Positions 8,829 through 60,966 of a stretch of DNA of 64,000 nucleotides are shown here, one piece after another. Both the position numbers and the translations under genes were made by a program. The notes below the pieces were generated by a model, which saw nothing but the letters and a program-made list of their open reading frames with translations, was not told the origin of the DNA and made no database searches. This stretch comes from Folioceros fuciformis (Eukaryota), in the NCBI GenBank assembly GCA_049999805.1, contig JBNGIO010006257.1, positions 81,675-145,674 of the forward strand. Reading direction: 5' to 3'. Positions within the stretch are counted from its first letter, which is position 1. Every line of letters begins with the position of its first letter.

Positions 8829-9267
8829 TTGGACCTGTCTTCCAGCTGCTTGCGAGTTCAACTGTCTGTTGATATGTCTACATATGCCCCTGAAGCCAAC
8901 TGCCGTCGTACCGCTCCATAGTAAAGCTGTATCCTGTCAAGAAGTTTCACGTTTTCACCCTGCAAACTGGATTGAGTGGTGGTGGCTATGCAACGCACGG
9001 CACGAGGCAACCCCAGTGGTGGTGGCTATGCAACGCACGGCACGAGGCAACCCCACTTCACGCTCCAACTTCCTACCACAAGTTGAGACGGAGGAGATGA
9101 CTTCGCCATGGAAGAGGCTCTTATTTGGGGCTTATTTTGGGATATTGTGTTATTAACATGGTATGAGAGCCCATGTTTTAGTCCCAAGTTCCTTGATTTG
9201 GGAGCCGCCTACATTTACTTGTGTAGGACTACCTTTGCTTCCTTTGTGTTGTGTATAGGGCCATGCA

Positions 9268-9412: not shown

Positions 9413-12269
9413 GTTAGAGAAGCTTGGTGATAGTGCAGGGAAGTCATCCTGTTCGGCCGCAAAGGACGGGAACATGGAGACACGTTTTCTCAAAACTCGT
9501 GTGGTGAAGAAGTTTGGAGGGAAGAACTTCACCTTATGGAAGCTGAAGATGAAGATGCTTCTTATTAAGGAGGGAGTATGGAAGTTCGCTGACAAGGGTC
9601 TCAATGTTGCCCCCGCATAGAAAGACCTCGACAAAGATGGACGAGCGCTGGCAACAATCTTGTTGAATGTCTCAGATGACGTTCTCTCTCAATTGAGCGA
9701 ATGCACAACGTTACAAGAAGCTTGGATCACCCTCTGCAATACATACGAAAAGAAAAACATGGTAAGTTCGATGCTGTTGGAACAACAACTTGCGAACTTC
9801 ACGATGGCCGTAGGCGACACCATCTAGCAACATGTCAGCAAGTTAAAGACCTTAGTGGACCAGATGAAGGCGATGGACATCAAACCGACCGAGGAAAGGA
9901 TCCTCGTGGTGTTGTTGTGTAGCTTGCCATCAACCTACAAGCCATTTGAGTCGGCCTTCAAGACAACGGTCGCGATGCGTTCAAGCGATAGGCTGCCGTC
10001 GTTGGATGAGGTGGTCGGATTGCTTTTGCAGGAAGAATTGGAGTTTTCAAACAAGAAAGAGAAGATTGATAACGTTGTCCTTCTTACCAAGAAAGGCAAA
10101 GCAAAGGCGAAGTTCAAGTCTAAGAACAAGTCCAAGTCTACAGATCAGATGAAGAAGGATGGTACGAGCCGTACGATGAAAGGATCTTGCTATTATTGCA
10201 GGAAACCAGGTCATCATGCCAAAGAATGTAGAACTAGGTTGGCAGACGAGTCGAAGAAGGAGAAATCCTCTCAAGCCAATCAAGTGAGTAAGCAACCTGA
10301 GCAGGAACAATCTTTCATGGCTAGCGATGGAGTTACTTCATCGATGAAGGATGAGAGTCTTTATCTTGACTCTGGTGCATCTCAGCACTTAGTTACAACC
10401 TTCCAGGGTTCACTTGCTACACTAGACTCCCTAAGGACCATACAGTGGCACTCAGTGACAATACGTCACATGATATCGAGGGGAAAGGAGTCTTACACAT
10501 TCAGTTGCAGGGCGGTAACCCCGCACGTATTGAGAATGTGCATCATGTACCTAATCTCACGAGGAATCTTCTCTCTGTTGCGTGGATTGCAGATGCAGAT
10601 CATGACATAGTCTTCAACTCCGCAGGCTGTCGCATTCAACTTGTACAGCCTGAGCCATCACACGTGGTTGCTCGTGGTGTTCGTGTGGGAAATCTGTACA
10701 AACTTTGTGCTTCAATGAGAAAGCAAGCTTGTACATTCCTGGCCAGTTCACGCAACCACATAGGGTCTATCAATTTATGGCATCAGCGTTTGGGCCACAT
10801 CGGAGTGGACAAACTGAAGCAGATGATGACTCATGACATGGTGACAGGATTGGATTTGACGGAGATTACTGCAACACAGTTGTGTCCAGGATGTCAGATG
10901 GGGAAGCTAAATCGCACAAAGTTTTCTAAAGCTACGATACATCGAGCACAAAAGGCGCTGGAATTAGTCCACACTGGCGTGAGCAGGCTCATGCAAAACC
11001 CTACACAAGGTGAGAATCGCTACATCGCTACATGCTCATCTGAACGAAGAGATCTACATGGAGCAACCCAAGGGCTATATGGTACCTAGACGTGAGGGCG
11101 AGGTATGTAAGTTACAAAAGGAAATTTATGGTCTTAAGCAATCTGCCCTTACCTAGTATCGTAAAATTGATGATCATTTCCAGTCTAGAGGTTTCAAGAA
11201 GACTAATGCAAATTGAAATATTTATGTGAAGCGAGTGGGAGGTTCTGTTATTATCATTGTCGTGTATGTGGATGATTTAGTCATTGTCAGTGATGATTAG
11301 GAGCTTTTGGCCTATGCAAAGCGAGGGCTCAACGAAACCTTTGTTGTACGAGACCTTGGGGAGCTATATCATTTTCTAGGTGTAAAGGTTGACATAGATA
11401 GGACCAATAAGGCAATCTCTCTAAGTCAGCAGCCGTATGTGCATACTATACTAGAACAGTTTGGGATGCTAGATTGCAAACTGATGCAGACGCCAATGAT
11501 CCGCAATGAGAAGTTATCACAAGTGGCGGATCCCAACGTGAAGGAACAAGTAGATAAGCATCTCCACCAGTGTATTGTTAGTTGCCTTACTTATTTGGCG
11601 ACAAGCACTAGGCCTGACATTGCAGAGGCAGTGGGAGTTGCGAGCCAATTCTTGGTCAAACCCCAGCCACAACATTATTAAGCCGTAAAGAGAATACTCA
11701 GACATCTGCAGGGTACAAAACATTGGACGTTGACTTACCGAAAGAAGGAGGACGAAGAAGCCAATATCGTGGGATTTTACGATGCAGATTGGGTAGGAGA
11801 TGTCGATACTTGTAGGTCTACCACAAGGTATGCCTTTGTGCTATTTGGGGGAGCTATTTCATGGTGTAGCAGGCGTCAGCCTACAATGGCGTTATCCTCT
11901 ATAGAGGCTGAGTATGTGGTAACCTTTACTGCAACCGTGGAAGCTATAAGGCTCAGGCGATTGCTCGAAGAAATGGGGTTCAAGCAGCAAGGTGCAACGC
12001 CCATCTTCAACGACAATCAGGGCTGTATTCCTCTGGCTAAAAGTGCTATTTTCCATGCAACGACTAAGGACATCGAAGTTAAGCATCACTTCATTAGGGA
12101 GAAAGTCCAGTCAAAGAAAATAGTTTTAGTTTATTGTCCTATAGAGGACATGCCCATCGATATTCTTCCGAAAGGTTTAGCTTTAGAGAAGCATATGAAG
12201 TTTAGCAAGATGCTAGGGTTAACTGAGTGAGTCATGTATAGGATAAGTAATAGATGTGTTGAGTGGGAG

Positions 12270-24912: not shown

Positions 24913-26716
24913 CACCTTGAAGGTCCATGAGCAAGAAAGTGTCCCTCCAGACCTCGTTCCAAGTTGGTTTCAAAAGGAAAACGGCTTTGGGAAGGGTGGG
25001 TTTCTTTACAGGGCTCTTTCCCATGAACTAAGTTCCGCTGTGTTTGCAGCGCACGATCCAACAATAACACACTTCCAGCTTAACGCGTCAAGCAAGACCA
25101 TAGCAAACAATTTCGTCGCGATTCGATCCTGCCCAAAAAAGGGTGCGCAGGTGTCAGAACGTCCACCAATCTTGACAGACCCTAATTCGTAGTTTGCTTC
25201 TAACATGCTTTCTGAAGCTTAGTTCACATGAGGTATGGATATTTTATCCACTATAGGTAATTTGTCTTTATGTAAGAATAACAGTTACTCCAAACAACCT
25301 ATTTGGGATTATCTGATTTCAAACATATGCACAAACACGTCTTCACTTAGTTATTTAAGAAAATAATTATCACCATGTCTTCTTCTTCTGAAGTTCCAAC
25401 TTTACTTTGTTTTCATCCACATTCATTATTTGTATATATTCATCATCATATTACTTTTAATTTATTTATATTTAACTATTATTGTATTATCANNNNNNNN
25501 NNNNNNNNNNNNNNNNNNNNNNNNNNNNNNNNNNNNNNNNNNNNNNNNNNNNNNNNNNNNNNNNNNNNNNNNNNNNNNNNNNNNNNNNNNNNTCTCTATA
25601 AAATTTTAAAATAAATCATATATTTAAATAATATTTAAATAATATTATTATCTAAACTCCACATCATAGAAACTATTTTTTAGGACATGCACGGTGTACA
25701 GCTGCAAAGCAACTAAGTCTACAAATCAAAATAATAAATAAATAAATTTATCCTTCACTAAAAGGAAACATGAGTTTCAAATCTTGAAGAGTTGTTATAC
25801 AAACTGGAGTTCAAAATTGGACATCATATAATCCCTTGACCTACTCCGACCTCACGTCTTGACTCAAACGGACGGCCTTGTGGAGAACGTCGGCCCTACA
25901 TATATAAACATGCGCGCCAGTATGCACGAGTTAAAATTCAGGTCACAAACTTATCAAAGAAAGGCGTTGTACAAATCTTTGATTCGGACATTCAAAAGTT
26001 AATTCGTCCTTTCAGGTGCAAATCAAAAACGCCTTAACTTCAAGCACGACAGTCCATCCATCCAGCAAAGCCGGGCGGAAGAACAGACTGACCATACAAC
26101 ACAACAAGCCTGAACCGTGACATACAGGATTTTCAAAACATTGACACAATTGGCTTAACTTTTTGCCAAGCTCATTTGTCATTCGGAGCGATTGGACACA
26201 TGGTTTGGACTACAGGTTAAGGATGTATGCACGTTGCGCCCTTGGTGTATTGTGGTGTAGTTGGCCAAGGCTTGGCTGTAGACTGTACACACCCTTCCCA
26301 AATCTATCTCATGTTCCTATTTCTTGGATAGTGATACTTTCTAAAAGCCACTCTTCTCCTGCTGCATGTCATGGGACCTATTTGGGCATATCAGGAGCAT
26401 ATATTAAAGTTAGCACAGGCTAACACAGTTTATCCAGGCGATCTTCTGACCACCATGCCTATTGTAATCTACCAGCTTCATGGAATAGGTGACAACACAA
26501 CTATGGAAGAACTTAAGCCTCTACGCTTCTGCAGAGTTCACATTGGCTTAGTCTCATATTTACACAGTTTTGACCTAACCAAGCAACAAGACTGCATGCA
26601 TGGCATTTTCATCCACAGGGGTGTACATTGTGCCTACCTGGACACCTCTTCAGACAGTGGACAACTACACACACCGAGCGTTGGCAATAGAAAGAAATCT
26701 GCAAGATGAGGCTTGG

Positions 26717-31085: not shown

Positions 31086-31514
31086 GGCCAAAACATGTTG
31101 TTTAGGAATTGTGGAGGCAATTTTAGTCCTGTTCTGAAGCAGCCTTTAGTGGCTGTAAGCATCTTTCCGGACCCGGAGGGCCCGGGCAGAACAAAACTAA
31201 AATTGATGGCCAAATCCTGCTTTATGCCATCCTGATGGTCGGGACCGGGCTACAAGCACTACAAGGATATATTGGCGCATATATACGCCAGGTAGGGATC
31301 AAGGCAGCCGACTCGGACTTTGTGGAGTATTGTTAGGGTTGGGGTTAGGGTTAGGGTTCTCCGGGGTGTAGTGATTATCCTTCAGTGCGCAACACAGTCA
31401 GTCTGTCTCTTGTTGGGGGTCGTCTCAGTTTTTTGTAGATGTGCGTGCGGCATCATATGTTCACTTTCTGCAGAGGGATTTCAGTGGTTTGTGGTAACCT
31501 TTCGTCGCTGCGAT

Positions 31515-31660
31515 GTCTAGTCTGCTGTGATGACTACTATAATCCCAGCTCGCTTCGAGGTCTTTCGAGATTGATGAAGAGACAGAGATCTGAGCAGGCC
31601 CGAGTCGTGTCGTGTTTGTTTTCCTGCTGTTTTCCTGTCCGTCCACCACTTCTCCTTCGC
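31515..31660 (-). repeat. Dispersed repeat, copy 2 (homologous to 6040-6180)
   Basis: Reverse complement shares an identical core of about 35 bp and similar flanks. Confidence 0.85.
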
Positions 31661-38843: not shown

Positions 38844-40344
38844 TCAAGGACTCCACCCATCGTACTCGTCCGCAAACATGTCGTCCACCATGAACATCTC
38901 ATCAAATACATCACCGTCCGAGTCCAGCTGCGACGCCATGCACCATTCCTCCAAGTCACTCAGCCAGATCTCATCATAGCGATCATCGTAGCTGTCCCAG
39001 GGATCGCCCACATCATCATCATCATCATCATCATCCAGATCATCGTCCTCATATACATCGCGATGAGTCTTGAACAGCCACGTCTTGAGCTTCTTCACCT
39101 TGCCTTGAAGTTCCTCATCCATTATCAGTTTGCCGCAATTGCGCACATCCAGGTATTGCAGGTCCTTGCAAGACTCCAGTATTGCCAGCAATCCAGTGTT
39201 CGAGAATTGCCCATATTTCAGCTCAAGGTGCTGCAGCTTGGACATGTTCTGTGCGATTGCAAGTGCCTCGCTCTCAGATGACACGTCACTCCCTCCTCGC
39301 ATGCGCCTCCTGAGGTCAAGCAAATTGCCAGCCTTCTTGCCGATGTTCTCAAGAGCCACCTCCGACAGCACCTGACAGTGACTGATGTTCAGTTGCATCA
39401 GAGCTGGGAACTTGACTTCCTCGTCAAAGAAACAGCCATCCGAAATGGGACTGTTCGGAATGAAGAGCTTCCTCAGATGCGCGCATCTGCAAGGGCAAAA
39501 ACCACGCACACGTCAACAACACACGGCCAGATACACCCCTCCTCTGCCAAAAACTCGCACCATAAGACAAGACGTGCGATACCTCGGTAGTCAAACATTC
39601 CTTTATTTGTTTTCCTTCTTACCCTTCTTACCCATCACAAGGCAAACAATCCGAAACAGCCAAGACACATTTTAACCACAAGTGATCCGAGACCGAGCAG
39701 AGCCAAACATCCAACAGTAAACTGCCCACACGAACAAGATTCGACGGCGGATGAACAGCATGAGAAACCAGCACCACCTTGTCGCAACGTATCGAATGGA
39801 GTCGTCAGACCCGACGTTTGTGACAATGAGCTCCTGAAGACCACCGCAGCTACGATCAACCACCAGCCTCACCATGCGATCCACTGTACCCGTCCGATCC
39901 TTGTCCGTCTTGCTCCACTCCTTCTTACTCCAGCTGGAAAGGTCCACGACCTAATGAAGCCATGAAGCTGCAAGGTGAAAAGACGACACCACTGCCAAAC
40001 ACAGGCCAGGAATCCAGATCCAGCATTCCAAGAAACTCATGCCAAGAACAACGAATCACCTGCCAGCACGAAGGATCCAGAGCAGCTCTCCTCCAAGACT
40101 TGCACACCAGTGGCACCACATTCATGAGCTCCTCGAACGACAGCCTACTGAAGATGGCTGCCAGAGCTTCCGGCAGCATGTCTGCCCAGGCGCACAAATC
40201 TTGCATCAGGGCTTCCTCAGGCTTCCCCTCCTCCGACGGTCTTGCAGATCCCGACTCTGCTCCGAGCGAAGGGTCATCAGAATTTCTGTCTGTCCCGCTC
40301 CCCACAGGCGGCACCAGCTGCCCACCAGCCATGCCATCGGCCAT
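38844..40344 (-). CDS. F-box/LRR protein, FBW2/SKIP1 family (FBW2-like)
   Basis: F-box WADMLPEALAAIFSRLSFEELMNVVPLVCKSWRRAALDPSCWQ, then VDRMVRLVVDRSCGGLQEL, EALAIAQNMSKLQHLEL, LQYLDVRNC and an acidic Trp-rich tail ending WSP. Exons 40344(or 40383)-40060, 39950-39778 and 39486-38844 are phase-consistent. The architecture parallels Arabidopsis FBW2 as recalled. Confidence 0.85.
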
Positions 40345-40654
40345 GTCAGGCCACCAAACCCTCCTCTCCGCTCTCTCGGCCATCAGCCACCTGCATAACT
40401 GCTTTAACACCCAGCAAACCCCCAAGCCGACAGCACCATGCAGTACTATGTCACTCTTCCACCCAGTTTGCATCTTGCTTGTATTGTTACCCGTCGCAGC
40501 CTACGGTTTTTGCGGACTACAGTACATAGTTTAGGTTTCCATGAGATGAAATTTTAACGCAGCTAAAACTTCTGTTTCTATAAGTATGTAAGTCTCTCAT
40601 TCAGCACTTTATAATAAGTGGACGGTACTCACTGGGACCTTGGAAATGCACCAC

Positions 40655-41552
40655 CTATAAGCATGTGTTTTGCTTGGTTGCTGCCCTAGGTAGGCAATGC
40701 AATGCATTGCTACACATAGTGGGTAATGTATGGGCAATGCATTGCTAAATATGGTTGCTACTTCAGGCAAGTAGCTATACATGGTTGTTGTCCTAGGCAT
40801 GCAATGGATTGCTACACATAATCCTTGTCATAGGTAAATAAGCATAATTATACATGGCTGTTGTCCTCAGCAAGCAATGCATTGCTATACATGATTTTTG
40901 TCCTCAGCAGGCAATGCATTGCTACACATGATTATTGTCCTCACCAAGCAATGCACTGCTACACATGATTGTTCTCCTCCACAGTAATGTAATGCTATGT
41001 ATGGTTGTTGTCCTCGTCATTGCTAGACATGGTTGTTGTCCTTGGCAAGCAATGCATTGCTATTACACATGGTTCTTGTCCCACATGGTTGTTGTCTTTG
41101 GCAAGCAATGCATTGCTATTACATAGGGTTCTTGTCCCACATGGTTGTTGTCCTTGGTAAGCAATGCATTGCTATTACACATGGTTCTTGTCCTCAGCAA
41201 GCAATGCATTGTTACATATGGTTGTTGTCCTTAGTAGGCAATACATTACTACACATGGTTGTTGTCGTCGACAGGCAATGCAATGCTACATATGGTTGTT
41301 GTGCTCAACAGGCAATGCATTGCTAGACATGGTTGTTATCCTTGACAGGCAATGCAATACTACATATGGTTGTTGTTCTCAGCAAGTAATGCATTCCTAC
41401 ACATGGTTGGTGTCCTAAGTAGGCAATACATAGCTACAAATGGTTGTCGTCCTTAATAGGCGATGCAATGCTACATATAGTTGTTGTCCTTGGCAGGTAA
41501 TGCATTGTTACACATGGTTGTTGTCCTAGGCAGGCAATGCATTGCTACACTT
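40655..41552. repeat. About 40-bp minisatellite (roughly 20 degenerate copies) with palindromic core GCAATGCATTGC
   Basis: Consensus approximately CAGGCAATGCATTGCTACACATGGTTGTTGTCCT, repeated head-to-tail. Confidence 0.92.
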
Positions 41553-41700
41553 CATATTCTCATATCCTCAGTAGCCAAGTAAGAAGGAAATAAGAAGGCT
41601 ACTTTCCTAGTAGCCTTACATTCTACCCAACAATGGGGTTGAAACAATCTTGTTTTCTGTAAAAGTATATAGCATGAGCCCTTGTTGCTAAACAAAGAAC

Positions 41701-41902
41701 TATGGAGTATGTGAATAACCCATTGCGAGTGACTAAATCTGATCAAACTCGAGGTTGAATCCCAAAATATGGAGTATGTGAATAGCCCATTGCGAATGAC
41801 TAAATCTAATCAAACCCTAGGTTGAATCCTAAAATATGAAGTATGTGAATAGCCCATTGCGAGTGACTAAATCCAATCAAACCTGAGGTTGAATCCCAAA
41901 AC
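41701..41902. repeat. About 67-bp tandem repeat x3
   Basis: TATGGAGTATGTGAATAGCCCATTGCGAGTGACTAAATC...GGTTGAATCCCAAAA occurs three times. Confidence 0.9.
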
Positions 41903-42101
41903 TTCCTCGTAAGAGAAACACCAAGGAATGTGCATGCTTACCGTAGCGATCACTGAACAAAGTACTAAGGGTTGCATCTTGAAAAGCATTTTAACATTTT
42001 GAATCAACCCATTACTGCATCCTCCATTAATTTTATATGGTTTCGTCTTCTTCTTCCAAGAGAACCATTTCTTTTCCATTCGAAGAAACTTGTTTTTTTT
42101 G

Positions 42102-42250
42102 TTACAAAAGTGGTTCTCACTAATGTCAAGCATGATCATGTGTTGTCGTTACAAAAGTGGTTCTCACTAATGTCAAGCATGATCCTGTGTTGTCGCTTAG
42201 GTGTGGTTCTCACTAATGTCAAGCATGATCCTGTGTTGTCGCTTAGGTGC
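42102..42250. repeat. About 45-bp tandem repeat x3
   Basis: GTGGTTCTCACTAATGTCAAGCATGATCCTGTGTTGTCG occurs three times. Confidence 0.9.
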
Positions 42251-43065
42251 ACGCACAAAGTAATTACTTAATAATTAAGTTATAGCATTGACAATGATTA
42301 ATAAATATTAATAAGATAATTATATAATATAATATATAATCAACTAAATGTGTGGACATGGAGTGGATTTTGTGGTGTCTGAAAGAAGCAAACGCTTCAC
42401 TTTTACAAGCTTGCTACAGGCTTTTATGCAAGCTACTTGAAGCTTGCTGCAGCCACGTCCACATAACTACTTCCTTGGAGGCCTAGGTTATTGTGTAGAG
42501 GGCGGTTGTGTTTCTGCCTATATGGTGGCCTCCGTAACCTTTCTGTTGAGGCTCCCTTACAAGCCCACAACTTACATCTCAAAGGATATAATATCCAATT
42601 AGAGATTTTATCACAAGAGAAGGAGGAGGAATTCATCTTTCACAAGGGGCATGTAAAGAAAACCCTCTTGCAAGGTTACTTTATTTATGTTGCTTATTTG
42701 TTGTGTGATGTTGTTATTTAGTCTTCCAATGTTGCATGTCCTGCGATTACACATTGTGTTTATTGACACATGGGAACCATACTATGTACTTCAAAATCTT
42801 TGTCGTTGTACACAAAAGGGAAAGTTAAAAAGGTTTTTCGATATAATCACCTAGTGTTATGTTAGTGAAAAAGAACAAGTACATACTTAGGCAACTATTA
42901 ACTTGAAGGGTGTGTGAGTATTTTGGGTTCAATCCCATATATCGAAATGAATACTTCATTTTGAAAAAGCTAAAGAAAGAAAGACGTAATTTATCATCTA
43001 CCCTAAGACCGAGGTAGAGGAAACAAATCTTGAAAAGCCATCACCTCATAAAATTCCATATTGTA

Positions 43066-43093
43066 TTTAGGGTTAGGGTTAGGGTTAGGGTTA
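43066..43093 (+). repeat. Interstitial telomere-like (TTAGGG)4
   Basis: TTTAGGGTTAGGGTTAGGGTTAGGGTTA. Confidence 0.85.
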
Positions 43094-43450
43094 TATTATA
43101 ATAGTAATTATTTAAATACATATATTTACAAATAAAAATAGATTAATAAAGATAACTACTTACTTATGTAGAGTAGGGGACTTTCTTAATAAAGAAACCA
43201 TCTAGGTTGTTAAAAAAACAACACGTGTTCACTTCTTAAAGAGTAGCTTTCTAATTTTAAAATTTTCTTATCCATGCTCATGATCGGTCTATAAGTATCA
43301 TCATGTAGGTGGTGTCATAACATTAAACTTATCCAAGACAAGTGAATCCACATGCATTCCATACTAAAATTTTAATATTTTTTATTATATTAATTGTTTC
43401 GTAAAGTTTCAACTTTATTACATTATAAGTACTACCCCCTATACCTTGTG

Positions 43451-44788
43451 ATGGAAGACCCAAAACTTCTCCCTCCAAGTGAAGCCATCCATGAGCTTGA
43501 ACGAATATTAGGTTATACATTTATAGATAAAAGTATTCTCTTGCAAGCAATAACTCACAAATCCCTTAGGAATGACAAATGCTATGAGGTGAGAAAGGAG
43601 TTAAATTTATTTAAAATAAATAAATAAAATATGAAATCACATGATGTTAAAGATAGGTATTTATATCGTTTCTTATAAATCATGTGTTGTGATTTATTGT
43701 TGTATCAGAGACTTGAACATCTAGGAGATAGCTTACTTAATTTTATGTTAAGTAAGTACTTCTATAATACATACCCCGATGCCTCAGAAGGGGACATGAC
43801 CCACATGAGGATAATGATGGCAAATAACGAGTCGCTTGCCAAAATTGCAAAAAAGCATAATATCGGCTCATACATACAACATAATGACAAACAAATTCAT
43901 GCACGACTCATAACGTGCTCTAACAATACTCATGTTATGAATGAAAAAGAAAGATGTTTAAAGGTATTGATTTAATTTTATTGAAATTGATGCATGTGCG
44001 GTGTATGTTTGTATGTTCAACATGACAATTTTATTAGAATAACTAGATAACTTATGTCAACACGTTGTTTTGAATAGATTTTAGCAGATGTCATAGAAAG
44101 CATAATAGGTGCAATTTTTCTTGATACAAAAGAAGATATTCAAAGAACATGGGAAATCACGCAACCTCTTCTATCACCCATTGTCACTTTACAACGTAAA
44201 AATATGAGTTCGATTGAAGAATCTCAAAATAAATTAAGTAAGCTTTCTTACAAAGTAATCTTTTGGTAATTGAAAACATGAATTTGTATCTAAATTCTGG
44301 TTTTCCTTTTGTAGAGGACGGAAGTTATAATGAGCATTCGCCAAAAGTTTCTCTTTCTCAATATAAGTCGAAACTTAATGAAATTTGTTTGCAAAGACGT
44401 TGGCATTTACCAGTATACATTGTAGACACCATGATAGGATCCCTTCATGAGACAAGGTAAGATATAGTTTTTATATATTTAAAATAGAAAGCTACAACTT
44501 AACAGTCATGCTTATCACTAATGTTTTTCAATGTTTAGATTCACATGTACAGTGAAGCTCGGGATCACGAATTCCAATACCAATGACATTATTCACACTA
44601 TTGTTTGTAGAGGTAGCCCTCAAACAAATAAGAAAGAGGCTGAAAGTGCAGCAGCTCAAGTTGTACTTAAGAAACTCTTCTCTCAAGAACAACTTGTTCA
44701 GGGTTCTCGTAAGAGATTTCACAACGTTTGTAAGAATATAGAACATCAACCTATCTACTACAATAATAGCCCATTGAGAAGAGTTTAA
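43451..44788 (+). CDS. RNase III + dsRBD protein (RNASE THREE-LIKE, RTL-like), 5 exons, 314 aa
   Basis: Exons 43451-43588, 43709-43963, 44078-44237, 44315-44456 and 44539-44788. All introns are GT-AG and phase-consistent (945 nt including stop). LERILGYTF...LLQAITHKS, signature YERLEHLGDS, KILADVIESIIGAIFLD, and dsRBD YKSKLNEICLQRRWHLPVY...FTCTV...KKEAESAAAQVVL. Confidence 0.92.
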
Positions 44789-47217
44789 ACAAGTACAAGT
44801 GCAAGACATGAGCCAAAGCAATTGGTTGCGTGTATAGTTAAGCACACCATATTTTGTCACCATGGCAATTAATGTTGTTTTAAGTGGAAAGTGTATGGAT
44901 AAACAAAAAGACTTTAGGGCATGAATTTTTAGCCGTACACACTTTGTTACAAGGACAAATTAAAATGGGCTACTTATCACACATGTTCAATAATTATGAA
45001 TGAATCTTTTATTCACTGAGGGAGAATGGGTTTGTGTTATTGATATGGTCATCATAGATCCATAAAGACCTCTCAAAGATGATATGATAGGTTATAGTTA
45101 GGTAAAGTTATCCACAACATAAATTATACTTAAAGGCATATGATTTATGAACAATTGCATAGGTAGAATTTAAATGTTCTTCTTATGCTGAACACTTTAA
45201 TCGAATCTAATTATCATAGTTTAGTGTGTATCATAGGGTGATAGTATCATAGTGTGATTCCACACAATTCAAGAAAAACACTGGTGATAGAGCATTAGTA
45301 ACTCTAATTTGTGTGGAAAAGGTGTTGTCTCTGCCACTCTCAAGTCAGGAACTTATTAGGAGTAGAATTGACAGCGTGAATTCCAATATAAATCGTGCAA
45401 TTTCATAATGCAAACAAGAAATTAAGTAAGGCATCAACTACTTGATTGATCTTCTGCAACTTATGAACCTTAGGCTATAAGAATTTGTAACTAACGGCCC
45501 TCATGCAGTTGTGGATCAGCAGAACCATGTCTTGAGCACTTTCGCTACAATTGAGAGGAGCAGTCCTAGCGGAGGTGCAATCCGTAGGAGGATTTGAAGT
45601 GTCGCTAGACAACATGCAGCCCTTTGCAATGTAGATCATGTTTGCAACAATTTNNNNNNNNNNNNNNNNNNNNNNNNNNNNNNNNNNNNNNNNNNNNNNN
45701 NNNNNNNNNNNNNNNNNNNNNNNNNNNNNNNNNNNNNNNNNNNNNNNNNNNNNAGACAACATGCAGCCCTTTGCAATGTAGATCATGTTTGCAACAATTT
45801 GATGCAGGTAGGCGCCTACCTGCAGCAAAGGGACATAACCATGGTTTATGGTGGTAAAGACCCAGCCTCAGTTAAATCCCTGTTATGGAGAATTTGGGGA
45901 TAGGTTTTAATTGCTGCAGAGGGGATAAGAAAGGCATCTCTGAGGAAGTTTAAGTGCAGGCATTGGAGACAAGCTGGTTTCCTCGCCGCAGGGAACGAGA
46001 TGAGGTGGAACCACTCGTGCCCTTGGAGGTGTTGAGATCTCCTTGATTGCAACAATCACACATCACATGTTAGTACTCCCTCATTGGTACGCAGTATTCT
46101 TCGTAGTTGCTACGTCAGAGGACTAAGAGGGTAGCGGATAGTTAGTGTCATAATCTTAGGGGGATTGGCTCCTTATTCCCCATTTCACGCCTTGTATCCT
46201 TTAACGGCGCAAGCTGTCATAATCCGATCTTTTCCACAAGAAAAAAAGGGACATGATCGTTAGTTCTCAAACCCTAATTCATGTTTTTTTTTTTTTTTGA
46301 AACGATATGAGTTTTTAGGGTTATGGCGTTGTAACCTTTTCTTTATGTCTGATTGCTTTGCTGAGGATGTTTAGCAAACTAATTGTATTAACAAGTCTCT
46401 AAGCTTCAATCATGTTATAGAGTACACACAACATGGCCATTTATATGTCCATGTCCATTGGAACTCAATTGAATGTGCTAGTTAATCAGTTTGGTCATCT
46501 TTGCCTGCAACCAAACACAAGCATGGGTTCATACCAACCTTCAGCCTCGTTCACCTCTAAATTAAAGGAAAAGAATTCTGAGTCTACTTCCTCTGTGAGC
46601 AGAGGATCATTTAGGTCTCCTGTAGAGTATGACAACAATGACTCGGGCTGCACCTAGCTGCTAGGCTAGGTTTTGGTTGGTGGGGCCTCTGGTTATCAGT
46701 GCATGTTGTGTGATGCATAATTCATAATCATACATTCAAAGCAAGGGCTTATGTGCATTATGCCAATATACGCAATGATGCTAATTTGACCATATCTATC
46801 ATAGGGGACATACATACACGGGATTGTTGTTGCTAAAGATATTGTATTTGCAGTTGGACAACACAAGCCGCGAGAACAAAAACCAACTATTATTCCCATA
46901 TCTAAACATGCTTATCGAGCTAGGGATTTTTGAGAAAGTGAAGGTTGGGTTTCTCTCTTAGTGGGTCACACTCATGATGAAGTGGACCAAATGTTCTCAT
47001 GGCATTTGAAGCACAAGGAGGCCAAGTCCCTTCCTATAATGACGGAGATATAACACAATGCATATACACCGGCCCCATAGGTAAAGATACTAACCAANNN
47101 NNNNNNNTTTCTGGCTTTCCTCTCCTGGTAAGAGACTCTCTCTTTTGTCTCCTGGCTAGCTTCCTCTTCTAGACGGTCTTCAGATCCTATCAGAATGAGT
47201 GGGAGCACACTAGGGAG

Positions 47218-47778
47218 TCAGGATGGCAACATGCATGGACTGATTTTCAGGGGGCTGGAAAAATGTTGCTTAAAGCATAAACGGCAACTGGGAAGATTGC
47301 CAAAACAGGTTAGGCAACTCACTATAATAGGTGATGACTGATCTTCAAAAACTGGACAATTCTGGATGTGAACGCGAACCATTTTCAGCCTTGAAGCAAC
47401 ACACCTATACCAAACAGGGGTTCCAGGCCACCTAGCTGTTCCAAGGGTAACAATCCTTGTTTCAGACACCACTCGTCTTGGCTCAGGAAACTTGGGTGAT
47501 GCTGAAGGATGTGGCTTGAGGGAGGTGTACTCGAACTCTCCCCACTCATATTTGCGGGCATTGAAAGAAGCCCTTGAGAAGGTCTGCTTCATAGGTTGTG
47601 GCGGTGAAGGATGACGAGATGGTGCTCCCATGTTGGGACTGGCCGTAGCAGCGGCAGCTGCTTGTCGCCGTTGCTGAAGCACCACTCTGGTTGTTCCCCT
47701 TGGTCTGCCTCTAGGCCGACCAGTTCCTCTGAATGTCCCAGCACCGACAGTCCCCTTTGCAGCAACACTTTGGTTCAT
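47218..47778 (-). CDS. Hypothetical protein with AT-hook (GRPRGRPRG) and C-terminal Cys/His cluster; possibly TE-derived or degenerate
   Basis: 186-aa ORF. C-terminal segment RCVA...HIQNCPVF...CLTCFGNLPSCRLCFKQH. No family recognised. Confidence 0.4.
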   Translation of the reverse strand: MNQSVAAKGTVGAGTFRGTGRPRGRPRGTTRVVLQQRRQAAAAATASPNMGAPSRHPSPPQPMKQTFSRASFNARKYEWGEFEYTSLKPHPSASPKFPEPRRVVSETRIVTLGTARWPGTPVWYRCVASRLKMVRVHIQNCPVFEDQSSPIIVSCLTCFGNLPSCRLCFKQHFSSPLKISPCMLPS

Positions 47779-49465
47779 AGCTGAGGTAACGAACCGCCCC
47801 AGAGCATCCCTCTATAAGATCCAACGCTTGGGACGTGAGAGGAGTTCTTCAGACTCCGAGGAAGACATACCGCCCAGTGGTGTGAGTTTACGCCCCAGAA
47901 TCCAAGAGAGAATGAAAGCCAAAACGTAAAGACACGCTAACGTACACGCAGCGGACCTGAACCGGGCCGTCTTCATATCGTGCGGTTCCATTGCGATCCG
48001 AGGAGGTCCAGTTGCTGAATCCGTTACACACTGTGTAGAGTAAGCTGGCCGAGCTGCCTACTCAAGACCTTCCTGAAGCTGGAGACAGTCCTCTGCGTCC
48101 TCTGCGCAATGATCAATAAGTGGGAGGAAAGGAAGATAGTGTGTTGATTCATTACTCAGGGTTTTGTTATATCCACATATATAGTGTGTACGCGTATATA
48201 GTTTAACGTATAGCCACTTACCCATTTCGCTAGGGTTACGTCTCTAGCCCAAAGGTCATGTCTTTTCACAATTAGATTAAGTCTAGTTGCTACGCTGTGT
48301 TACTTACTTCATATTCTTATGAACATATGAAAATGTAATGTAATTACTAAATACGTAATTGATCTATACCATTAATATATTTCGTTATAAGCCTCCTGCA
48401 GATTCTAGTGTTGATACTCTTGAAACAGACGTAGACACAGTAGATCAGCCACCCTTCTTCCGCTCGCAAATGCTGTGGAAGGGCAGCGATGATCTGCAGG
48501 CCGCTCGCAGTGGGCTGGACGCGGGTAGCTCCTGCGCCGCATTCGTGAAGTTTTAAGAGCTGTGGCGTAGGGGGGTACTGTGCTGACTGCTGATGCTTTA
48601 GCCATGAATCTACTAGGGAGGCCCGGACGAAACCTGGCCTGTAAGCTACGGGAGCCTTGGAAGGGATAGCCTGTGGCTCAGTGAGAACTTCCTGGACCTG
48701 CGTTTGAGATCCTCATCGTGAGTGAAAGTCTCTTACGAAGATGAAAAAGTCGAGTGACATGAATTCTTGCCAGCAATTGTAACCTTGTGTGCCGAGCCCT
48801 TGGATGAGGCAGTGTCTACTCGCAGGGTCATCTCCATTGAAGCTTCTAGTGCCCTGAGGCGTCATTTTGAAGTAAGGGACCCGGTCATGGAGAAGGAAGC
48901 AGGGTCTGACGACTCGTGCTGGCATCATTCTACGGGATGCGTACATGATCAGGTTTTGTGTCTTTCCTGCATAGATTTCGTCGGTGCAGACTTTTGCAAA
49001 TGTGTGCATTTTTTAGACCTTTTTTTGTCTGTGTTTTCAGACGTTGATGATGGGAGACTGCGGGTACAAAGCTCGCGACAGCTATCACTGTGCGCCCTCT
49101 GCTTCAGGGCGCAGCTTCTTGGAAGAGTCTTGGTGCTGAGTAAGATCGGCACAGAGTCTGTACAAGGGCAACGTGAATGACTGGCCTTGTTGTCTGTGCG
49201 TCGAGAGGGGCTTGCCGCGAAATAGCAAGTGAGTAGCGGAGTGTACAGAAAGAATTTAAAACAGAGAAGTATGACAGCGACGGGCGAAGTGTACCATCGC
49301 AATTTGTACATAATCGTGAGCTTGTATTATGCTGTTAGCGAATGCTGACGAATGATTGTGACATCAACTAGTACAGATGAATCGAGAACCAATATTCCTG
49401 TGCTACCTACAAAACTGGAGTTTCACTCTTATTGTGCACCTATGTCCAAATACGGGTACAAGCTA

Positions 49466-51595: not shown

Positions 51596-54500
51596 TTATC
51601 CTACAATGCAAACGCCGATGCAAATGCAAATTTCACAACAGAAGCAAGTGGAATGATAACTTTAATCCAGGGGGCCTGGAAACAGCATCACCGTGCAAAT
51701 ACATACACTTGCTGCAAAAAAGAGAGGAGTGAACCCACCTCTCCGGCCTGCACCCCCACCTACACCACCTCCACCAGCACCTGTGCCTTGCCCGATAGCA
51801 GCACCGGGTGGCTTGTTAGATAGACGCCGCTTATATCGTTTCAACACAGATGCCAAGTTCTCTTTCCCTTTAGGAAATGCAACATCTCCGGCAGCTGTAC
51901 CAGTGCGTCCTTTGCGATGCCCCACTGCTAATTCCACGTCTTTGATGATGTCCAAGAACATGGAGGCACTAGCACCCTTACCCTGGACAGCACAAGCGGT
52001 ATTCTGTCCCCAAAGTGCGCTGCCGTGAGCATTTTTAGGTGAGTAACCGTTGGAAGGTGAGAAAGCGTTGATGTGTTCCAGCCCTTCATAGTCTCTCGCA
52101 CTACCTAGTCTGCCAAGGGATGTTCGCTTCACTCCATTTTCCAGTGCCCCAAATTCTTGCAGACACAGACAAGGCAGTGGGACCTGCCGTGGTTTCCCGA
52201 AAGCTGGTTCAAGGATACCCTGCAACCGAGGTAGTTTTGGTCAGCATAAGCTCCTCACACTGTGTATGAACAGATTATAAGTGAGTGGCAACAAGACTTG
52301 ATACCTGAAGGCGGTTCAACACGTATGTGTATTTCCCCCACAGTTCTGGCCTGCTCTCCATCACAGAAAGCTCCAGGACACGATGAACACACCACACTCC
52401 AAAGCTGAGCAGCAGTCCCTTGTTCCAAACACATTGATCGCCACAACGAGGAATGGCACTGTTTCCAAAGCTAACTTCAGGACTTTTCTTTACTGGGACG
52501 CCCACAGACCGACCGTAGGTCTGCCAGTGCTGCTGGTCGCTGCAAATTCTTTTGAGTGAGTCAGAGGCTAACCTCTGATATGCAGCAATGGAAGCAATGA
52601 GGTCCTGGTCTGAGCCACCACTGTCAAAGCGAAATAGCCAATCTGAACCTTCCAGCTGTGACAGCTTGACAAGACATGCCTTGAAACCCTCCAGCATTTC
52701 TACTTCAAAGTCAGTTGCGCCAGCACTCCCACTCGGAGGAGCATAAGTTATACCAGAGCCATCCATTCCAAGAGTTCTACTATCCAAGGAACTCTCTGTC
52801 GTTCCAAAAAGTTGTTCAAAGGGCTGCGTCGACCAAAGGGACTGATTTCCGGAATCTGGCATTGTCTGTGTCGAGAAGTTTTCTTTGGATGACCGAGCTG
52901 GTGAGATTTCATCGAATGGCAATAGGACCCTAGGCTCAGTACCAAACCCTTCCTCCCTAAGTGCAGAGCCACCGAACGTAGCAGGACGTGTACCCTCAGT
53001 CCACTGAGAAACTGAGTCGAATTGATGTGACATATCCAGTTCCCCTGTGGCTCTAGACACGAGCGGATCCCATCGGCCCGTGGCCCTGCTCACAAGAGGG
53101 CTCCACTGAGGGAACTCATATTCTGATGGCGGAAAGCTGGAATCATCTACATTCGACTGGCCTGCTTCTCTTGGATATCGCATATCAAGGTACATGGGTC
53201 TTGCTTTCACTCTGGGAGAGACAGGGCTACTACTTGGGCTAGATCGATTCATAAATGAAATACTTTGACATCCATGAATCGTGGCAGGTTGGTGGTCATA
53301 CTCCTCACGAGGTGCAGGAAGCTTCATACTGGAATAAGGGCGTTCAGTCCTGAGAAGTCCACTCCTGCCCAGCATATCAGGTGAAAGTCCAAATCGAGAT
53401 GATGTTGACGCTGCTGCATAAGTGTGTGCACGCAAATATGCATCCATGCGGCCCAGCTGGTCAGAGAACGTCTGTGTTTGCCAGGATTTCTTGGGCTGCC
53501 TGGGAGCAAATGACTGCAGGTCACTCCTTTCGTTCCCATTCTGCTGTCTTTGTTTCACCGCCGTACCATGCTTGGTGCTAGGTGGCCCTACTGGCTGCCC
53601 ATGGAGGTCAAAAATGTTGCCCCAAAATTCATCGAGGATTGCAGCAAATTGCCGCCGAGCCGCCCGGCCAAATCCTGAAAGTCTGGATAGACTACCACTG
53701 CCACTTCCGCCCCCACTACCTTCACTGGTGTCACTTCGGCCCCCAACACTTCGTCCTGACCCGGGGCCATCATATGCCAGGGAGGGGAGACTTCCACTAC
53801 GGCCAGGAAGGACCACTTCTTCGGGCCCTAGATTCTCCCAGGCATCTGCTTCCTCGTGTGTGTCTAGCAAGTCCAACTCCGCATCAAGACCTACCTCTGC
53901 ATCCGCCTCTGCCTCCGAGTGCTTCAATATAGAAGAATCGATGTCCTCCTCCTTCAAGTCACGCATCAGGCTCTCACTCTTACTGATCACACTCCCGAGG
54001 ACAGACCCTGCTGGCGACTGTGCAAGGGGTGACGGCCCTGGTGTTGAAGTTGAGCTTGTAGACGAAAGGGACTCCTCGAGGAAACAGTCGTCACAACTGA
54101 ACACAGGAGGTCGCTTCAATCCTTCTGGTTCAGAGTCTGCCTCAATGGTCAGATTGGGTGCAGACTTTGATGGCACAGCATAACCATGAAGTCCCTGGAT
54201 AGAATCACCTATGCCCCTTGACAGTGAGCCTTCTTGAGAAGAGGTTGGACAATTGCTGGAAGGCAGATCAGGACTCTTCTCATGGTGTGCCAGTTCACGT
54301 TCAGCACAAGGAGCAAGATCCCGTTGTGTTGCATTTATTTCACATCCAGTTAACCCCTCTTGTTTTGAAACAGTTGCTCCTTGTATCCTTTCATATTCCT
54401 CAATCCACAATTGCCTCCGCAGCTCTTGGCTCTCAACTCGAAGAGGAGTTATAGTCATCCAGACCAGGAAACCCACTGACATAAATACTGCAACTAGCAT

Positions 54501-56368
54501 CGTAGAAAACAAGGCAGCTTGTCCTGTCTCTGCCCATGTCAGCGACCACCACTCTAGGTTTGCTACTGTCTCCCAACTTGCAAAATTGACCCACTCATCA
54601 CTTTCTCCGAAAAGCATGTCGGAGACAAGCCACATGTCCAGAAAGAAAACTATACCTACTGTGATCCAAGCTAAAGATTTTACAGCAGCAGCATTTTTGT
54701 GGGCACCCATATGGGCACCAGATGACGTTATCTTAATCAGGGGGACTACAGCAAAAGGAAGCTGCAGGGCAAGAAAGACCTGCGAAAAAATCAATAATTG
54801 ATATGTCCCTTGACTGCCTGTTCTCCAGACACACACAGCTGCAGGAATAATAGCTGCGAGTCGTATACAGAATCGATGGACCCACCCATGCATTTTGGCC
54901 TGAAGAAACCCCTCCAGAGCTACTTGCCCTGCTACAGTTCCTGTGAACGCTGAGAGCTGGCCCGCACATACCAACGCTAAGCCAAAGACTGCTGGTGCCA
55001 TGGCATTGTCCAATATCTGCAGACCCACACCAAGGGTTCACATTCCAGAGGACACAGCAGGTCTTGCTGATAGCTACCAAAAGACACAAATGCAAAGTTC
55101 AGCAATCAAGCCAGACCTAGTCAGCTACAGCATGCACGTGTCCCTTACAAGTTCCATGAGTGCATGGGCATCTTGAAGGGTAAGAACCACACGCCCAGCG
55201 TTGTGGAAGGTGGTGGCAGCCACCATGAGAACCACCAGGTTGACAATGAGAGCTGCACCAAATGCAACTGCAATATCTACAAAATTGTACCTACAAAGAG
55301 CATCAAACGAACCCCTCCACCTCTCCCGTCGACCCTGCAGTGTGGGAATCGCGCAGGCGAGTTAGAGTAGCTTCCAGCCTTGAAGCATACGATCGTGTGG
55401 GATATTCGCACCTGACCGGAAGGAACACCCTGAAACGTAAATTACCTGAAGAAGAGAAGAATGCAGATACAAGTTGTGGGGCATGATATTTGCGCCAAAC
55501 AAACTGACTACAGTGTACAGGCTCTCCCGCCTCAGCCTGGGTACCAACCCGGACACGACCGCAGCCATCGGTGGATTGCTCAGCAGGATATGAAGAACAA
55601 AGCAAAGCAGCACGAGTCCAATAACACACACCGACGCCATCTCCGCCTTCCGAACACCCTGCAAGATAGGAACGCTACCGGCTCAGTACATATACGAACA
55701 TCCATGTTACATTTAATTGAGCACCAGAAAGTGCAAAAACAAGACCTTCGTACCAGTAAGGGCAGAATCAACAGGTAGAGAACCGCATCGGCTGCCATAA
55801 GAAATATACTGGAAAGCATGGGAAAATGCAGGAGAAGGTCCAAGCCGATAGCAGTCCCCAACACCTGAACACACAAACATCACAATTCAGTCCACCAACC
55901 CTTACTCACAAGACATAACCTCCAATTCACATTATGGGGCAGGACATCACCATTGTCAAGTCTTGAGCTACGACGGACATCTCGCACAGAATCCACATAA
56001 ACAGGGACGTCCCTCTTGGATACTCCTCCCTGCAAATCTGCGCTCGGAATCACGCCAATGTCAGTAAAACCCCACTGCACCCGGCCATACACGCATGTGC
56101 GCTCGCGGAATACAGTGAGCAATCAGACGCTTCTGCCCACCTGAGCCAGGTGCTTCCCCGTCACCAACCCTAACCGGGCGGCCAAAGTCTGCAGAAACAA
56201 CGCCATGACGTTGGCCAACACCAACACCCACACCAGCTCGTACCCGAATCGTGATCCCCCCTCAATGGCCGTTGCCCAGTTTCCGGGATCCATATACCCC
56301 ACTGAGACCAGAAATGCTGGCCCCAGAAACGGCACAAACGTGGCCACGGCTGCCTGGACCCTGTCCAT
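51596..56368 (-). CDS. EIN2: Ethylene-insensitive 2 (Nramp-like N-terminus + CEND)
   Basis: [139 protein letters not shown]. The stop is at 51596-51598 if a final intron is spliced, otherwise at 51662. Confidence 0.97.
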
Positions 56369-58929: not shown

Positions 58930-59678
58930 AGCCTTGGTGGCTGCTCTCTTCCAGAAACCGACAGACGAAGTCGCTCCCACCCAAGTTTTCTGGACGAGTA
59001 CAATGGTTTTGGAGACTTCAGTACTGTGTAGTCGCCGTTGCCCTAGTAGGTGTGTTGTAACGTTTCTCTTAAATTTGTACAACTTCGCAGTTCGTATGGG
59101 AGGGTGCCAATGTGGTGTGGAGACCGCCATCACCTCCTGGCCATCTAGTATGCTGGGTGGCGTCAGGTAGAGCCTTGGATATCAAACTCCCATCCTGTAT
59201 CTTGAGCTCTGAGTTGGGTGAGTTGGGCCGTGGGGAGTGGTCCCTTTTTCGCTTGATGCGCAACTCAATGTATATATCCAAGTTTTTCCACTGCTGTGGT
59301 TGAAGCTAGCTCAACTCAGTCGGGAGATGGAAGCGAGCTTCAGCAGATGGACCATGTAAAATAAAGAAGAGTCTTTTTTGGTATCGGATATTCTAGGCAC
59401 AGAAAGCAAGCAACCTTGGTTTTTGTGTGAGGTGATCGAGCGGCATGGCCATCATACGATCTAGAATATCACTTACGGTACTGTATGTGAATGTGCATCT
59501 GGACGATTTCCTGGATGGCACATGGCAGTAGAAGGACTAGTGGAGCTGCCTGACTTCCGGCCGAGCTTCTAACCCGAGTTGGGTGAGCAGCAGATGTATC
59601 TGGTTCTGTATCTGGCCCTGTGGAACTTTATTCCATCCTGTGCAGGTAACAGGTGCAAAGTCCATCGGTTCGGACGCC

Positions 59679-60966
59679 ATGGTGGCCGTGGAGAGAGTGG
59701 CAGATGTGTCCACCATCGAAGAGAGGCTGAAGAAGTTGAACTTGGACCCGAGCTTCGTGGTGGAACCGGAGCATCGCCCTCGGCCAGAAGTGCGACGCAA
59801 TTCGGAGAACTTGGAGAAGGACAACATACCGGTAATCGATCTGAGTCCTCTGTGGGGCGGGTTGCAGAAATTGATCGGAGACGCTGCAGGATTTGCCGCA
59901 GCTGCAGCAAAGGAGCCAGCGCTGGAAGAGCTAGTTGCGGAAGTGGGCCGGGCCTGCGAGGAGTGGGGCTTCTTTCAGGCGGTGAACCACGGTGTGCCGC
60001 TTTCCCTGCTGGACGAGCTGCAGGAGGTGAGCCGCCAGTTCTTCAGCCTCCCCCTGGCAGAGAAGCGGCAGGTACGGCGCACCCTGGAACGGCCCCTGGG
60101 CTACTACGACTCAGAGCTCACCAAGAACAAGCGCGACTGGAAGGAGGTGTTCGACTACTCGTGCAGCGGGAGCGTGGAGATTCCTGCCGGGCTAGAGGGG
60201 GACGAGGAGGTGTCGCAGCAGATGATCGTGGTGGAAAACCAGTGGCCGGCCAATCCCCCCGGCCTGAGAGAGGCTTGCGAGAAATGGAGCAGGGCTGTGG
60301 AAAGGCTGGCTTCCGACCTGGTGGGTGTCATCTCTCTGAGCCTGGGCCTCCCCTTCTCGCAATTCCATCAACACTTCGACCAGGGCACTAGCGCCATCCG
60401 GTTGAACTACTACCCCAAGTGCCCAGTCCCGGACCTGGCTCTGGGTGTCAGCAGGCACAAGGATTCCGGCGCTCTCACTGTGCTGGTGCAGGACGAGGTG
60501 GGCGGGCTCCAGGTCCGGCGCAGCGACGGGGAGTGGATCTCCGTTCAGCCCCGCCGAGATGCCTTTGTCATCAACGTCGGTGACTTGTTTCAGGTAAGTC
60601 TCACGTGCGATCGAAGGCTGGAAGGAAGGAAGGCTGTGGCTGTGGCTGTGGTTGTGGCTTGTGCACTAGGAAAGGATTTTTCGTCATGCTTGGGATGTCA
60701 CGTTGCAGGTGTGGAGCAATGATCGTTATCGTTCTGTGGAGCACCGGGTTGTGGTGAATGAGAATCGCGAAAGGTTTTCCTTCCCACTCTTCTTCAACCC
60801 GTCCGTCCGAACGGAGGTATCTCCAGCGCCGCAACTGCTCGACGCCAACCACCCTCCTAATTACCGCACTTTCAACTGGGGTTTTTTTCTCGTGTCTAGA
60901 AACAACGGGAATTACGAGCAGCTGGGGGAAGATATACAAATCCACCACTTTGCCGCACAAGCGTGA
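59679..60966 (+). CDS. 2-oxoglutarate/Fe(II)-dependent dioxygenase (DOXC class), 2 exons
   Basis: IPVIDLS, ACEEWGFFQAVNHGV, KRDWKEVFD, RLNYYPKCP, HKD...H (EHRV) iron triad and RFS 2OG motif. Exons 59679-60593 and 60709-60966. Confidence 0.95.

Follow-up and report, generated by a model that had tools for sequence, protein, structure and literature searches.

The 64,000-nucleotide (nt) stretch analysed here (the window; Folioceros fuciformis, assembly GCA_049999805.1, contig JBNGIO010006257.1, positions 81,675 to 145,674 of the forward strand) harbors a gene for a small protein with one ribonuclease III (RNase III) domain and one double-stranded RNA (dsRNA) binding domain (dsRBD), seated in an AT-rich, CpG-poor stretch of about 6.5 kb (the island). 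All coordinates refer to the window. The gene spans 43451-44788 on the plus strand and is split into five exons that encode a product of 314 amino acids (aa). Exon 1 (43451-43588, +; aa 1-46) provides the ATG start, has the catalytic residue E46 as its last residue and gives a weak match to PF14622. E49 and D53 lie in the RNase III signature encoded by exon 2 (43709-43963, +; aa 47-131; PF00636, E 4.8e-17). Exon 3 (44078-44237, +) contributes the second catalytic pair, D135/E138, together with a W-x8-P-I-V-T motif at aa 156-168. Exon 4 (44315-44456, +; PF14709, E 2.8e-4) encodes the linker and the N-terminal half of the dsRBD, in whose helix 1 Cys209 is located; the second half (KKEAESAAA), a 34-aa tail and the stop codon (44786-44788) are found in exon 5 (44539-44788, +; dsrm, E 2e-5). 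The four introns, 120, 114, 77 and 82 nt in length, are all of the GT-AG type. RNase III or dsRBD families of Pfam are matched by all five exon translations, two of which pass the curated cutoffs alone (exon 2 with 63 bits, cutoff 27; exon 5 with 25.5 bits, cutoff 23). When the spliced protein is aligned with RTL and DCL3 proteins, no break appears where exon 1 joins exon 2 or where exon 2 joins exon 3.

All five acidic catalytic residues are kept (E46, E49 and D53 in ERLEHLGD, D135 and E138 in DVIES), and both dsRBD marks, G-S-L-H and K-K-E-A-E-S-A-A-A, are present in the product. Because all five exons match the expected Pfam families, the introns are GT-AG, the alignment is unbroken across the junctions and the catalytic and dsRBD motifs are preserved, the gene, as judged from its sequence, is real and intact. 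A preliminary description of the same DNA had reported a clean five-exon gene for a 314-aa RNase III-dsRBD protein with both catalytic pairs (ERLEHLGD, DVIE), and our exon model, Pfam matches and intron borders bear this out. The product belongs to the RNase III superfamily by its domain, its signature and its acidic residues, which are equivalent to Aquifex E37, E40, D44, D107 and E110. Its architecture is that of the RTL1 type, with a single RNase III domain, a single dsRBD and no helicase or PAZ exons, following the operational definition of plant RTL1-type proteins (single RNase III, single dsRBD, no helicase or PAZ) in PMC4687873. The catalytic residue numbering of RTL1 and, D107 aside, of the Aquifex enzyme is that of PMC5714217. 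The combination of helicase, PAZ and two RNase III domains that marks plant Dicer-like (class IV) proteins is not found, there being one RNase III domain only. In a tblastn search of the whole window with six plant Dicer and Dicer-like proteins only the exons of the RNase III gene matched (E < 1e-3), with no helicase, PAZ or IIIa exons, so that the gene is not the remainder of a bigger Dicer gene whose upstream exons have been lost. The predicted product has no N-terminal extension, which makes a transit peptide for an organelle unlikely. The product is probably an active, divergent RTL-type enzyme.

A HMMER search with exon 2 against 1.84 billion representative proteins returned 2597 matches at E <= 0.001, 75 of them at <= 1e-10 and none at <= 1e-30. 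Among the matches listed, long proteins are at most 41-42% identical, and a single partial protein of bacterial origin is 53% identical over 57 aa. Names were looked up for 30 of the best 150 of the 2597 matches; seven of these 30 are plant DCL3 proteins (Ginkgo, Musa, Riccia fluitans, Raphanus, Selaginella 3a, Acorus and Cryptomeria), and the others include amoeba, heterolobosean, fluke, mantis shrimp and bacterial metagenome-assembled genome (MAG) proteins. A word-index protein search with the same exon yielded five candidates, none of them significant. In BLASTP comparisons with the spliced protein, the Ginkgo DCL3 IIIb domain (37% over 180 aa, 134 bits) and an RTL2-like protein (27.7% over 346 aa including the dsRBD, 134 bits) scored highest, followed by angiosperm RTL1-type proteins (38-40% over about 160 aa, up to 126 bits with 40% over 161 aa) and Riccia DCL3 (38.7%, 121 bits). 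The angiosperm RTL set was gathered by a search seeded with an RTL-like match from hop. The top match in PDB is the IIIb domain of Arabidopsis DCL3 (7vg2) with 41.9 bits, bacterial RNase III structures reaching at most 36.8 bits. Viral contigs yielded nothing related to exon 2, and the one match in metagenome contigs was to a bacterial RNase III of the ordinary kind (231 aa, 43% over 56 aa). The gene is most likely a divergent, lineage-restricted family member that is not an orthologue of angiosperm RTL1-3.

Two marks in the product are of plant type. The first was evaluated in an RNase III domain alignment of 81 rows, which comprises the query, 38 angiosperm RTL, 11 plant DCL IIIb, 5 plant IIIa, 18 other eukaryotic Dicer-like and 8 bacterial-type rows. 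It is the motif W-x(6-10)-P-[IMLV]-[IVL]-[TS], which follows the second catalytic pair and whose pattern was defined after inspection of the alignment. It occurs in the query, in 9 of the 11 plant DCL IIIb and in 20 of the 38 angiosperm RTL rows; none of the 18 other eukaryotic Dicer-like, the 8 bacterial-type or the 5 plant IIIa rows has it. The residue aligned to Cys209 (in N-E-I-C-L-Q) is a cysteine in 20 of the 23 proteins with an aligned dsRBD, including all seven of RTL type, and a leucine in the bacterial-type row P0091. According to PMC5714217, this helix-1 cysteine (Cys230 in RTL1) is conserved in the dsRBDs of RTL and DCL proteins and is required for cleavage by RTL1. Since the W-x(6-10)-P motif and the dsRBD cysteine are both plant-type, they weaken the case for a non-plant origin of the gene.

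The base composition of the locus is deviant. The most AT-rich part of the 64-kb window is 40500-47100, where 500-nt windows have GC contents of 0.30-0.42 as against 0.47-0.61 in the flanks. The coding sequence (CDS) of the gene has a GC content of 35.4% (30.4% at third codon positions, GC3), its introns have 21.7-27.3% and seven flanking open reading frames (ORFs) 50.7-56.2%, so that the preliminary description was right in calling exons and introns more AT-rich than the flanks. Across the island GC shifts gradually, without a step (0.41, 0.36, 0.30, 0.35, 0.42). The island as a whole (40600-47097) has a GC content of 0.37, an observed/expected ratio (o/e) of 0.40 for CpG and of 0.86 for TpA. 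Similar values are seen in a relic of a reverse transcriptase (RVT_1; 3175-3966, minus strand), a CpG-poor patch with GC 0.40, CpG o/e 0.31 and TpA o/e 0.79, and in an AT-rich patch near 25493 (GC 0.27, CpG o/e 0.33, TpA o/e 0.92). A relic of a copia-type long terminal repeat (LTR) retrotransposon (9828-11086, perhaps to 12227, plus strand), with Retrotran_gag_2, zf-CCHC, Pol_BBD and gag_pre-integrs matches in overlapping frames, shows GC 0.45, CpG o/e 0.66 and TpA o/e 0.79. The corresponding values for host gene regions are 0.52-0.54, 0.61-0.72 and 0.47-0.59. Because its dinucleotide make-up resembles that of the other transposable element (TE) relics of the window, the island looks like the host's own repeat compartment and is not clearly foreign. 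The gene span with exons and introns (43451-44791) has a host-gene-like CpG o/e of 0.60, as compared with 0.37-0.44 in its flanks; in 40600-42250 CpG o/e is 0.27 and TpG/CpA 1.6.

Three tandem arrays, a TTAGGG run and two N gaps, all as the preliminary description has them, accompany the gene. The largest array (40774-41550; Tandem Repeats Finder, TRF) repeats a 37-nt unit 21 times (21.2 copies, 70% matches); each of its units carries the palindrome GCAATGCATTGC, and a 56-nt higher-order block repeated three times lies inside it at 41027-41193. The other two arrays, found by TRF and a repeat search, comprise three copies each of a 67-nt unit (41701-41901, 91% matches) and of a 46/47-nt unit (42101-42249, 92% matches). 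The run of 4.5 TTAGGG units (43067-43093, +) lies about 360 nt upstream of the start codon; a second, degenerate TTAGGG-like run is found at 31333-31358. Five further tandem-array sites elsewhere in the window demonstrate that arrays are not special to the island. The 100-N assembly gap at 45654-45753 is flanked by identical 47-nt sequences (45607-45653 and 45754-45800) and is therefore read as the unmerged overlap of two contig ends, which probably hides no sequence and could be removed by merging the two ends. A 10-N gap (47098-47107) marks the right edge of the AT-rich stretch.

Just before this gap, 2 kb downstream of the RNase III gene and on the same strand, lies a frameshifted DUF7869 relic (46714-47053, +), which is truncated by the 10-N gap and is spread over three frames (46714-46836, 46785-46961 and 46934-47053). 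The frames match PF25273 (DUF7869) with E-values of 0.18 (profile positions 17-47), 5.5e-14 (57-98) and 2.2e-6 (98-130), and the nearest ESM Atlas clusters of the middle piece are likewise DUF7869. For the DUF7869 piece there were no PDB matches and no relative in viral contigs, and no literature was found under DUF7869 or PF25273. The relic shows a pattern D-N ... G-H-T-H-x3-D with about 40 residues between the acidic sites, a pattern that may fit an RNase-H-fold DDE enzyme; the relic is possibly transposase-like. Fifteen further ORFs of the island have no significant Pfam family, their other matches lying below the cutoff with E-values of 0.06-0.24. No pair of terminal inverted repeats (TIRs) or LTRs bounds the island (whole window at seed 14, island at seed 9), and the best inverted pairs inside it (16-35 nt, 71-94% complementarity) are not terminal. 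No intact transposase is seen in the island, no part of it except the TTAGGG run has a second copy in the 64-kb window, and Rfam gave no matches on 40000-48500. The earlier statement that neither a transposase nor clear termini are visible thus holds for the termini, none of which were found, but needs correction in that a TE-like piece, the DUF7869 relic, is visible after all.

Our analysis favors, with confidence somewhat better than even, an intact nuclear bryophyte gene for a stand-alone RNase III with dsRBD, apparently of the plant Dicer-IIIb/RTL type by its sequence, that is located in repeat and TE-relic DNA of the host. Several observations weigh against this explanation. The clade of Dicer IIIb and angiosperm RTL domains (58 of the 81 rows) excludes the query, with support of 98/91 under LG+G4 and 99/90 under LG+C20 with posterior mean site frequencies (PMSF). 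In the approximately unbiased (AU) test, a grouping of the query with the angiosperm RTLs (p 0.017) or with plant DCL IIIb (p 0.012) is rejected, and a grouping with the bacterial-type rows is not (p 0.40). The GC3 of the gene (30%) is the lowest of all window ORFs of at least 150 aa (next lowest 0.379), and a value this low is not easily squared with a native gene. Moreover, the right junction of the island coincides with the 10-N gap and is not sequence-verified.

In the LG+G4 tree the angiosperm RTL domains form one clade of 38 rows (99/97) with the query outside of it, and in the LG+C20 PMSF tree the query stands beside the eight bacterial-type rows without support (47/25). Its position was also unsupported in an earlier FastTree analysis (293 domains) and in a quick tree (71 rows). 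A grouping with ordinary RTL orthologues, which the preliminary description had considered, is hence not observed with angiosperm RTLs in the trees or in the AU test (p 0.017). The tree set contains no bryophyte, fern or lycophyte RTL and no class I RNase III of arbuscular mycorrhizal (AM) fungi; with no such RTLs in the set and with the query as a long, compositionally biased branch, tree and AU results may mislead. Taken with the two plant-type marks, they are consistent with a plant-type but deeply divergent lineage on such a branch.

If the product works as its residues suggest, two subunits would dimerise via their RNase III domains and so create a single catalytic valley, while dsRNA would be held by the dsRBDs and cut on both strands. 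This mechanism is the most likely one given the conserved residues and the analogy to RTL1, whose homodimers form via the RNase III domain and which depends on its catalytic residues and on Cys230 (PMC4687873 and PMC5714217). Candidate origins of the gene at this locus are an old duplication of the 3' part of a Dicer gene, a ride on a transposon or a transfer; candidate substrates are precursors of small interfering RNAs (siRNAs), ribosomal RNA spacers or other dsRNA. Plants have few stand-alone RNase III proteins (RTLs), and nearly all work on them has been done in Arabidopsis, in which siRNAs are erased by RTL1. A survey of small-RNA genes in Viridiplantae does not mention RTLs. A deep-branching, intact RTL-type gene in a bryophyte, to which public protein sets offer no close relative, would widen the known range of the family and would be a test case for how parts of Dicer give rise to RTL-type enzymes. 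Given its unusual base composition and its location in repeat DNA, the gene is also a reasonable candidate for movement by transposon or transfer. If movement were shown and siRNAs were found to be lowered, it would be the first plant example of a genomic parasite with a dsRNA-cutting suppressor; no literature on transposon-borne RNase III suppressors was found, as judged by title.

As the preliminary description has it, the island is placed between ordinary host genes. Its left neighbor, which is not part of it, is a minus-strand F-box/LRR gene (38844-40500; ORFs 38844-39512 and 39925-40500) with an F-box-like match of E 3.1e-9, LRR matches and 51-56% GC; a bHLH gene follows further left. To the right, a 197-aa ORF on the minus strand (47218-47811) contains an AT-hook-like run, GRPRGRPRG. 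This ORF had been counted among the parts of the island. It does exist, and it has no Pfam family and no usable match in an ESM Atlas search, but its GC content of 51% is host-like and it lies outside the AT-rich part, so that it probably does not belong to the island. Beyond it come two ORFs without a family and an EIN2-type Nramp gene, of which a single open exon of 920 aa (52275-55037, minus strand; Pfam) covers the end of the Nramp domain and a long C-terminal part. The best named relatives of this ORF are from the liverworts Marchantia paleacea and Riccia (41-42%), followed by lycophytes, mosses and ferns, which by sequence identifies the host as a bryophyte. One unnamed assembled protein is 50% identical to the EIN2 ORF.

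Elsewhere in the window, a SABATH-type S-adenosylmethionine carboxyl methyltransferase gene (7674-8936, minus strand; PF03492, E 1e-68) with a GC3 of 0.82 illustrates the breadth of the host GC3 range, and a 2OG-Fe(II) dioxygenase gene (DIOX_N and 2OG-FeII_Oxy) is located at 59541-60719 on the plus strand. Where GC drops locally in the window, TE relics are found. Another very AT-rich patch (25200-25850, GC 0.27) surrounds a 100-N gap at 25493-25592; AT-rich DNA and gaps thus co-occur in the window. An inverted repeat of 81 nt with 90% complementarity (6094-6174 versus 31520-31600, arms 25 kb apart) may represent two copies of a dispersed repeat in opposite orientation. The segment 36033-36640 (GC 0.60) has several open frames on each strand, in which K-A-R-Q-G-like peptides recur periodically; it resembles a minisatellite more than a gene.

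Among the alternatives, horizontal acquisition from an AT-rich eukaryote, such as a fungal symbiont of liverworts (e.g. Glomeromycotina), a micro-animal or another plant, fares best, and we still regard it as rather unlikely. It would account for GC contents of the CDS (35%) and introns (22-27%) that are far from host values, for the lack of a close relative in any sampled plant and for a maximum-likelihood position outside the plant clades with the bacterial-type grouping not rejected by the AU test. The island also holds the TTAGGG run, and TTAGGG is the telomere unit of fungi and animals. Class I RNase III genes are present in AM fungi (PMC5786227 and PMC5982333). The plant DCL/RTL-specific motif and the dsRBD cysteine, however, weaken the case for a fungal or bacterial donor, though not for a plant donor. 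In addition, single-domain proteins make up only 4 of the best 150 HMMER matches (P0120, named as a bacterial MAG protein, and three without a name, P0146 with 222 aa having a bacterial-RNase-III-like length and layout), and therefore an AM-fungal RNase III, if one is among the sequences searched, scores below about 53 bits. The dinucleotides of the island match host TE relics, and viral contigs hold no relative.

The preliminary description had pictured the island as a mobile anti-silencing cassette, i.e. as a present or former mobile element that carries the RNase III as cargo, the enzyme destroying the dsRNA precursors of silencing siRNAs. The deviant composition, the seat of the gene among satellite arrays, the broken DUF7869 relic with its DDE-compatible acidic spacing downstream on the same strand and the lack of orthology to the sampled RTLs would all fit this idea; besides, RTL1 is, according to PMC4687873, a proven siRNA suppressor that needs its catalytic residues. 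Against it stand the missing TIR or LTR pair, the missing intact transposase and the single copy of the island in 64 kb, as well as the commonness of satellite arrays and TE relics elsewhere in the window and the similarity between the island and other repeat DNA of the host. With a decayed DUF7869 piece beside an intact RNase III gene, the two do not obviously form one unit. Composition and repeat setting thus agree with the earlier picture, positive evidence for a mobile element with the gene as cargo does not come with them, and the idea is neither supported nor refuted; we consider it unlikely. A more specific scenario, quite unlikely in our view, would see in the island the remnant of a DUF7869-type DNA transposon or of a horizontally delivered element that brought a Dicer-derived RNase III into the host, where the enzyme would have been kept because it trims siRNA-precursor dsRNA of the surrounding repeats. 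If true, this would be a transposon-borne silencing suppressor in a plant.

Similarly improbable is a silent and decaying gene, a young duplicate or captured fragment that is open by chance of its age and has no function. Its seat in CpG-depleted, presumably methylated repeat DNA would suit such a gene, and Arabidopsis RTL1 and RTL3 are themselves barely expressed according to PMC4687873. Yet at 32% GC about 7.6% of random codons would be stops by our own arithmetic, and 314 codons are open over five exons. All catalytic and RNA-binding marks are kept at an identity of at most about 40% to any relative, which argues for long purifying selection, and the CpG o/e of the gene (0.60) is like that of host genes and unlike that of the flanks (0.37-0.44).

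An assembly chimera or a contaminant misjoined to host DNA could be suspected from the four N gaps in 64 kb, from a transition between host and island that adjoins the 0.8-kb satellite array, from the 10-N gap at the right edge and from the presence of the stretch in two runs only, both from one sample, but it is very improbable given that a single stretch without gaps (25593-45653) takes in the gene and the arrays together with about 15 kb of host genes, that the exact 47-nt overlap across the 100-N gap supports the adjacency of the next piece, and that GC changes gradually with dinucleotides like those of host repeats. An origin from a giant virus is set aside, since the gene has four spliceosomal introns and the plant-type motifs and no relative of it was found among viral sequences.

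A stand-alone RNase III can serve a genetic parasite as a silencing suppressor, as the RNase3 of sweet potato chlorotic stunt virus shows. In contrast to the viral gene, the gene described here has introns, a plant-chromosomal seat and no relative in viral contigs. Bacterial class I RNase III and the AM-fungal RIRNC2 and RIRNC3 have the same two-domain layout and size class, and the N-terminal half of the product is 44% identical to partial proteins, one of which is named as bacterial. The full-length bacterial-type match P0146 (name not found) reaches 28.5% identity only, and unlike the bacterial type the gene is interrupted by four spliceosomal introns and encodes both the plant-type motif that follows the second catalytic pair and the dsRBD cysteine of plant type. 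For AM fungi, PMC5786227 and PMC5982333 describe two class I RNase III genes, which encode RIRNC2 (264 aa) and RIRNC3 (291 aa). Plant DCL3, in its IIIb domain and dsRBD end, provides the best pairwise and PDB matches, and a W-E-I..P.L-S-P-I-V-T stretch is common to both. The gene differs from plant DCL3 in that it stands alone and does not nest among the plant DCL IIIb domains (AU p 0.012), and it has no special likeness to liverwort DCL3 (38.7%) over the DCL3s of seed plants. Arabidopsis and other angiosperm RTL1-type proteins (about 300 aa) have an N-terminal extension of about 50 aa that the product lacks (subject starts at 56-76 versus query starts at 9-13), and the query, from a bryophyte host, falls outside the 99/97 clade of angiosperm RTLs. 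With these RTL1-type proteins it nevertheless shares the combination of one RNase III domain and one dsRBD, the catalytic E/E/D/D/E set and the helix-1 cysteine.

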